Positions 31,832 to 32,881 of a DNA stretch of 64,000 nucleotides are shown here, piece after piece. The notes under the pieces were generated by a model that was not told the DNA's origin, searched no databases, and was given only the letters and a program-made list of their open reading frames with translations. The stretch's first letter is position 1, and the number at the start of each line of letters is the position of its first letter. The position numbers and the translations under genes were made by a program. This DNA comes from Escherichia coli (GTDB lineage Bacteria > Pseudomonadota > Gammaproteobacteria > Enterobacterales > Enterobacteriaceae). The DNA is taken from NCBI RefSeq assembly GCF_003334315.1, contig NZ_QOWR01000018.1; one strand, 5' to 3'.

Positions 31832-32374
31832 GTGCGGGTATTACTTCGACCTGTTCTGGTACCGGAACTCGGGCTGGTGGTCGTTAAGCCGGGCCGTGAA
31901 TCCATGCCGGTATTCCACAATACCCGGGTACTGGTGGAGCCGGAACCGAAAAGCATGCGTAATCTGCCGTCCGGGGTCGTTCCTGCCGTTCGCCAGCCGC
32001 TGGTGGAAGACAAAACATTGCTGCCGTTTTTCAGTAACGCACGGGTAATTCGTGCTGCTGGTGGTGCTGGTGCATTGTCTGACTGGCTGTTGCGCCATAT
32101 TAAATCCTGCCAGTGGCCACACGGCGATTATCATCACAGCGAAACCGTTATTCACCGTTATGGTACCGGCGCAATGGTGTTGTGCTGGCACTGCGACAAC
32201 CAGCTGCGTGACCAGACATCCGAATCACTCGAGCAACTTGCTCATCAAAACCTGTCAGCATGGATGATTGACGTCATCGGTCACGCAATAAGCGGTACGC
32301 AGGAGCGTGAATTATCTCTGGCTGAATTATCCTGGTGGGCGGTCCGCAATCAGGTGGCGGACGCGCTACCGTAA
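31832..32374 (+). CDS. DUF968-family prophage protein, N-terminal part (180 aa)
   Basis: GTG start; CWHCDNQ motif; ends with TAA directly in frame with the next ORF. Confidence 0.5.
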   Translation: MRVLLRPVLVPELGLVVVKPGRESMPVFHNTRVLVEPEPKSMRNLPSGVVPAVRQPLVEDKTLLPFFSNARVIRAAGGAGALSDWLLRHIKSCQWPHGDYHHSETVIHRYGTGAMVLCWHCDNQLRDQTSESLEQLAHQNLSAWMIDVIGHAISGTQERELSLAELSWWAVRNQVADALP

Positions 32375-32881
32375 GTGGTATTACGTCGCTCGCTGGGATT
32401 ACCAGCGGAAAAAAACTGCTCGGTGTACCGCGAAAGCGACATCGTACCGGGAGAGCAGACCGCCACCAGCATATTGAAACAGCGCACAAAAAATCTTGCA
32501 CCGTTGCCTCACGCCCACCAGCAACAAAACCCATCACAGGAAAAGACGGTGGTAAGCATCACCGTTGATCCAGAGTCTCCGGAATCTTTCATGAAGCTGC
32601 CTAAACGTCACCGTTGGGTTAAGGAGAAATACACACGCTGGGTTAAGACACAGCCGTGTGCTTGCTGCGGTATGCCAGCCGACGATCCGCATCATCTGAT
32701 TGGTCACGGGCAGGGCGGAATGGGAACCAAAGCACATGATCTCTTTGTGTTGCCTTTGTGCAGAAAGCATCACGACGAGTTGCATACGGATACCGTGGCA
32801 TTTGAAGAGAAGTATGGCTCCCAACTGGAGCTGATTTTTCGATTTATCGATCGCGCGCTGGCAATTGGTGTGCTGGCCTAA
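32375..32881 (+). CDS. DUF968-family prophage protein, C-terminal part (HNH-like Cys/His motif, 168 aa)
   Basis: [21 protein letters not shown]...CRKHHDELH; same frame as the preceding ORF, separated only by a TAA. Confidence 0.5.

Follow-up and report, generated by a model that had tools for sequence, protein, structure and literature searches.

The YdfU family of prophage proteins (DUF968, Pfam PF06147) corresponds to His-Me finger group 7 of Jablonska et al. 2017 (PMC5714182) and includes the YdfU protein of the Qin prophage in Escherichia coli K-12. Here we describe a ydfU-like DUF968 gene (31832–32881, plus strand) in a 64,000-nucleotide (64-kb) stretch of E. coli contig NZ_QOWR01000018.1, hereafter the window, in which a TAA stands at codon 181 of 349. 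We conclude, with a probability of roughly 90%, that this genome carries a nonsense allele of ydfU, restricted to its lineage and effectively a pseudogene, which arose by a single G-to-T change in the codon for Glu181. The closest described system is Qin itself: its YdfU belongs to the same family, has the same 349-codon length and is 92% identical at the DNA level, and both loci show the gene order hokD, rem, orf92, ydfU, Q-type antiterminator at a shared chromosomal site beside ynfE-rspAB. The two loci differ in that the K-12 ydfU open reading frame (ORF) is intact, as in all other relatives that we examined, while that of the window carries the TAA, and in the type of downstream Q gene, which encodes a Q-family protein of 125 amino acids (aa) in the window and the 250-aa YdfT in K-12. 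More distant comparisons are offered by P1 Ref, a RecA-dependent HNH nuclease (PDB 3plw), and by YbcO of DLP12 (DUF1364, PDB 3g27), both small single-domain proteins; YdfU has in addition a conserved N-terminal region of ~190 residues that has no Pfam match. Our search of the literature found no report of biochemical or nuclease activity for YdfU.

The only in-frame stop inside 31832–32881 is the TAA at 32372–32374, which is followed directly by GTG. It divides the gene into an N-terminal fragment of 180 aa that begins with GTG (31832–32374, TAA included) and a C-terminal remnant of 168 codons plus its own TAA (32375–32881) that comprises the linker and the whole His-Me/HNH domain and has no start site of its own. 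The N-terminal fragment covers positions 1–180 and the remnant positions 183–334 of the 334-position PHROG 96 profile ("HNH endonuclease"), so that the two halves span it end to end and are pieces of one homologous gene rather than chance neighbours. Their combined length (180 + 1 + 168 = 349 codons) equals that of ydfU in K-12 DH10B, annotated as a 1,050-nucleotide (nt) coding sequence. These results bear out the initial annotation, made from the letters of the window, which had noted two ORFs of 180 and 168 aa in one frame split only by TAA and GTG, and had given a length of 349 aa for K-12 YdfU. NCBIfam scans of both ydfU halves and the neighbouring genes returned zero matches. The antisense and out-of-frame ORFs that span the stop (116, 87, 134, 77 and 56 aa) match nothing in PHROG, and apparently nothing else is therefore encoded across it. 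Scans for promoter and terminator consensus sequences near the stop yielded nothing above shuffled expectation.

Comparison with the nearest complete genomes, 13P460A and IBS28, reduces the interruption to one base. Over the 1,050 nt of the gene both are identical to the window (one mismatch, 99.9%) except for a G at 32372, which gives GAA (Glu181) in place of the premature ochre codon, and their intact 349-aa product is annotated "ydfU: DUF968 domain-containing protein". Codon 181 is GAA in the compared loci L001, L003, L004 and L005, the first of which differs from the window at this base alone across the gene, and GAG in K-12. The G-to-T transversion at 32372 is recent, because the prophage of the window differs from that of IBS28 at only ~15 positions across ~37 kb. 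When compared with intact ydfU, the frame 3′ of the TAA is wholly kept and holds no further lesions, as expected of so recent a mutation (one difference in 1,050 nt). A functional member of DUF968/His-Me finger group 7 would have an uninterrupted ORF for both regions of the protein; at this locus the ORF is broken by the TAA at codon 181, and the locus is therefore a pseudogene of the YdfU family and not a functional member. It is a recent, clonal, single-base pseudogenisation of an already known prophage gene family.

The stop has no counterpart among relatives. Among 121 cluster representatives, which stand for tens of thousands of sequences, 117 have Glu and 3 have Asp as residue 181; a sense residue also occupies this position in all 33 diverse full-length relatives (26–90% identity) of a 34-sequence alignment, within a block that is conserved (..LSxxELxWWAVxN....LP-E-...R..L). 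Full-length relatives of 320–370 aa, down to ~28% identity, retrieved from 1.84 billion representative proteins, align over the site in one stretch. Of 5,426 complete E. coli genomes, 2,805 carry the region with at least one mismatch, and not one contains an exact match to an 81-nt query centred on the TAA. Among phage records, 173 of the 185 that match have at least 80% of the protein covered by a single place, and the isolated phage HannyBb encodes, in the same hok-rem-orf92-DUF968-Q context, a protein with 99.1% identity. Alignment with full-length homologues, the check suggested by the initial annotation, thus finds a sense codon wherever the window has TAA (Glu or Asp in 120 of the 121 representatives, a sense residue in the 33 diverse relatives). 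Homologues consistently split at the same stop-start junction were what that annotation would have taken as evidence against a lesion; those that we found are single ORFs of about 349–352 aa. The single-base step from GAA to TAA, together with a sense codon 181 in the homologues examined, supports the first of the three explanations that it had offered, a nonsense mutation.

Given that the TAA is one base away from many otherwise identical genomes and is shared by no complete RefSeq genome, we considered whether it might be a sequencing or assembly error in a genome that truly reads GAA. The same TAA is found in three Logan contigs (L006, L008 and L011; runs SRR1122540, SRR3824135 and SRR3951468), and since the SRR1122540 contig is the same in three samples, at least three run accessions and five samples have yielded the allele in separate assemblies. 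All three contigs are 100% identical to the window over 1.5–4.4 kb, including the private single-nucleotide polymorphism (SNP) at 33963, which shows that the allele is reproducible and confined to one lineage. The substitution also lies outside any homopolymer and is not a typical platform error. A sequencing error is therefore unlikely, and we allow it only a very slim chance. An apparently wider spread of the exact 180-aa product (11 contigs) did not survive inspection: of ten contigs examined, only three carry the TAA, and the other seven are GAA contigs that merely end at codon 181. These seven unrelated assemblies (L007, L009, L010 and L012–L015) terminate 0–2 nt from codon 181 of an intact GAA ydfU. 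Most simply, this is a selection artefact of querying with the exact 180-aa product; codon 181 may also mark a point where assembly graphs frequently branch between paralogous prophage copies.

Readthrough, the second explanation raised initially, would require the TAA to be decoded as sense, by programmed recoding or by a suppressor, often enough to yield full-length YdfU. The fully preserved downstream frame, free of further lesions, could be read in this way, although it is what a very recent mutation is expected to leave behind, and a proline codon (CCG) precedes the stop. A proline before the stop can slow termination. However, the stop is conserved in no relative and its context is TAA followed by G. 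In E. coli, UAA is recognised by both release factors RF1 and RF2, and UAA-G is an efficient termination context. We found no tRNA genes, suppressors included, in the 64-kb window, and an Rfam scan identified no recoding or other element at the stop site. With an unconserved stop in a TAA-G context and no suppressor tRNA in the window, we find readthrough barely credible.

Domain searches and structural modelling of the protein restored at codon 181 indicate what the stop removes. Pfam assigns residues 160–346 to DUF968 (E = 1.2e-76) and residues 271–328 to HNHc_6, in agreement with the HNH-like Cys/His motif, and the nuclease that it suggested, noted in the C-terminal part at the outset. A ββα-metal fold with a Cys/His zinc and active-site motif, as expected of the His-Me group, is predicted in YdfU. 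The AlphaFold2 model built on the diverse alignment (mean predicted local distance difference test, pLDDT, 85) has three parts: an N-terminal folded region to about residue 190 that includes a helix at 181–188 (pLDDT ~89), a flexible segment (pLDDT <50 at 229–242), and a C-terminal ββα domain at 246–349. On the DNA, this predicted ββα-metal (His-Me finger/HNH) nuclease domain occupies 32567–32878 and its HNHc_6 core 32642–32815. The premature stop falls at the start of the modelled helix 181–188 and not in the disordered linker 229–242. It cuts off the N-terminal region from a nuclease domain at the C terminus whose likeness to P1 Ref and YbcO is detected by fold comparison only; a sequence search of PDB chains with the restored protein returned only a chance RING-finger match (E = 0.44).

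The third explanation offered initially is a functional two-gene arrangement, that is, a gene fission in which the HNH part is made separately by termination-reinitiation at the TAA-GTG junction. The stop adjoins the GTG at a distance of 0 nt, a spacing that coupling needs but that does not suffice for it, and spacings of −8 to +10 nt favour termination-reinitiation in E. coli (PMC10666635). In addition, the C-terminal domain is an autonomous module, with residues ~237–349 occurring with other N-termini and residues 1–~153 with other C-termini; small stand-alone relatives exist in YbcO and Ref; and gene callers annotate C-terminal pieces as separate proteins. However, no conserved stop-start junction exists among homologues: the junction occurs in one clonal lineage only and is kept in no relative. 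The GTG past the stop is an inherited codon, Val182, already present in the intact closest relatives, and the corresponding residue is Ala in most relatives (87 of 121 cluster representatives, with Val in 5). Upstream of GTG 32375 there is no Shine-Dalgarno sequence at 5–10 nt, and its best match (GGUGGC, −4.9 kcal/mol) is out of range at 16 nt. The true ydfU start, GTG 31832, lies by comparison behind GGAGGU (−10.6 kcal/mol), one base past the stop of the upstream ORF; the orf92/ydfU junction (31828–31834) is a true coupled junction of the same operon and has all the expected features. Removal of the Shine-Dalgarno sequence lowered reinitiation by 60–90% in three of five E. coli gene pairs and abolished it in a fourth (PMC6728339). 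The cut also lies inside a conserved helix and not at natural module boundaries or in the flexible linker. Finally, stop-GTG junctions arise by chance in this gene, because a separate lineage has a TAG at codon 197 followed by GTG at codon 198. An unconserved junction, a pre-existing Val182 and the lack of a Shine-Dalgarno sequence in range make the coupled two-gene arrangement highly improbable.

We interpret the nonsense mutation in ydfU in the context of the element that carries it. The window holds a lambdoid prophage at the Qin site, arranged as hokD/sok, rem, orf92, ydfU, Q antiterminator, lipocalin/YbgA cargo, lysis genes and terminase onward, and its flank on the ynfE-rspAB side is ~100% identical to ordinary commensal E. 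coli strains. On this ground we rejected a Shigella origin, which had been considered because Shigella genomes abound in pseudogenes. A second private inactivating mutation of this prophage affects ynfN (39181–39420), where a run of seven T at about 39190–39196, compared with eight in IBS28, shifts the frame after residue 7. Two further pseudogenes upstream in the prophage are already annotated in relatives. In other lineages, ydfU genes that are ~99% identical and read GAA at codon 181 carry independent lesions of their own, which lie at gene nt 549–591 (window 32380–32422; L017–L026) in a look-up made with the 152-aa C-terminal piece and hence biased to lesions upstream of codon 198. These include an A7-to-A6 frameshift at gene nt 578–584 (window 32409–32415) in many assemblies (eight contigs), some of which could be sequencing artefacts as the A AAA AAC run is slippage-prone; a TCG-to-TAG change at codon 197 with GTG198 next to it (L022, GCA_965264835.1); and a 17-nt deletion (L019). 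Among the sequences compared, ydfU is repeatedly broken in lysogens. Because other lineages bear independent ydfU lesions and ynfN is frameshifted here, the pattern is one of prophage decay, and the nonsense mutation is consistent with a resident prophage undergoing ordinary mutational decay. The locus shows the marks of a pseudogene, namely a sense codon in close and distant relatives, a single-nucleotide cause, restriction to one lineage, and other decay in the element and in the gene. The independent disruption, in several E. coli lineages, of this accessory gene immediately preceding Q suggests that ydfU is dispensable to the lysogen. It would best be annotated as one ydfU pseudogene with an internal stop and not as two genes, and neither piece represents a new short protein family; the locus is a small, clean example of prophage decay. 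The ynfN gene of K-12 DH10B is likewise annotated as frameshifted.

We next consider what the allele may mean for expression. Translation from the sole good ribosome-binding site (at GTG 31832), which makes the 180-aa fragment the only product with a proper one, now ends after 180 residues, and the truncated protein is left without the final helix of its N-terminal region, without the linker and without any of the nuclease domain. The function of full-length YdfU is thereby probably lost. The C-terminal fragment would be made at most as a trickle, by reinitiation without a Shine-Dalgarno sequence at the adjacent GTG or from weak internal starts; a small amount of the 168-aa product, or of products from the weak starts at 32549 and 32591 within the C-terminal part, may be present. 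Loss of YdfU is probably tolerated, judging by analogy, since pdcB, a distant homologue in P1, was scored non-essential and lambda can dispense with its entire nin region upstream of Q (both PMC10695390).

The stop may also reach beyond ydfU. Some ~500 nt of mRNA would now be untranslated, including a C-rich, G-poor tract, which could impose Rho-dependent polarity on the downstream Q antiterminator gene. This candidate Rho-loading region (32443–32572), delimited by base composition, begins ~70 nt and ends ~200 nt 3′ of the premature stop, and its C/G peak, a 78-nt stretch at 32456–32533 (C = 30, G = 11), has a ratio of 2.73 compared with a window-wide 99th percentile of 1.92. The tract lies inside the linker-coding region of ydfU, is rut-like and is normally shielded by translation. 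In E. coli, RNAs with premature stops are targets of Rho (PMC7819879); blocks in the nin region of lambda are polar on Q (PMC10695390); and K-12 is reported to have a strong Rho-dependent terminator before ydfU (PMC9160355). Polarity on Q is accordingly a possible consequence, as predicted from the composition of the transcript. The Q-family gene itself (32899–33276), next downstream of ydfU, matches phrog_79 at 2.8e-50, is annotated "antiterminator Q family protein" in relatives and shows zero differences between the window and IBS28.

These considerations admit a further proposal, namely that the stop is an early step of gene fission, with a separate HNH product made by reinitiation at the adjacent GTG independently of a Shine-Dalgarno sequence, or a domesticating lesion that lowers Q through Rho polarity; we consider it improbable. 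Were the lesion domesticating, lowered Q would help to keep a mEp460/HannyBb-like prophage, complete in other respects, locked into the chromosome, and a stop polar on Q would be one natural route to a non-inducible prophage. No observation contradicts the reading of ydfU as a nonsense allele, but several points qualify what we have drawn from it. The 0-nt spacing between stop and start falls in the range for reinitiation (PMC10666635), and some C-terminal product is possible. The allele has lasted long enough to be sampled in several runs, which fits neutrality and is not proof of lost function. The polarity step, for its part, derives from base composition, and antitermination of early transcription in this phage, if it occurs, would suppress it.

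Other features of the prophage were recorded alongside ydfU. The upstream orf92 (31552–31830, plus strand; 92 aa), whose stop abuts the ydfU start, matches phrog_1212 and is annotated "hypothetical protein" in all relatives. Between Q and the lysis cassette lies cargo (33432–35108) consisting of a Blc-like lipocalin gene (33432–33956, minus strand) and a YbgA/DUF1722 gene that is 2-thiouracil-desulfurase-like (34149–35108); it takes the place of cspB and cspF of K-12 Qin and has the appearance of a moron-type insertion beyond Q. Two of the few private SNPs that distinguish the window from IBS28, at 30697 and 30859, fall in the sok/mok-hokD control region (Rfam sok, 30693–30867), the second of them 3 nt before the start codon of hokD (30862). 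Elsewhere in the window, Rfam models that scored above the gathering threshold include a DicF small RNA (25238–25289, minus strand), a cspA-type thermoregulator upstream of cspI (38539–38955, plus strand) and IS009 (63488–63686, plus strand). In some genomes, DUF968 is fused to a Q-type antiterminator domain (PF03589) in 607-aa proteins (P0053, P0054 and P0056), which presumably arose when the ydfU stop was lost and the gene was joined in frame to a downstream ydfT-type Q gene.

Set beside known systems of translation across adjacent genes, the locus resembles natural coupled gene pairs (PMC6728339, PMC10666635) in that stop and start are directly adjacent. It differs from them in its unconserved junction, in the lack of a Shine-Dalgarno sequence and in a "downstream gene" that begins in the middle of a conserved helix. 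A further parallel is with the ochre alleles of E. coli, among which restarts in lacI and Rho-dependent polarity (Richardson 1991, as cited in PMC7819879) are classical cases. Restart and polarity in the window are predicted from its sequence, and phage antitermination could cancel the polarity, in which respect the locus departs from those alleles; it shares with them a premature UAA in a gene of an operon, an in-frame GUG close by at which translation might weakly restart, and C-rich mRNA left untranslated before a downstream gene.
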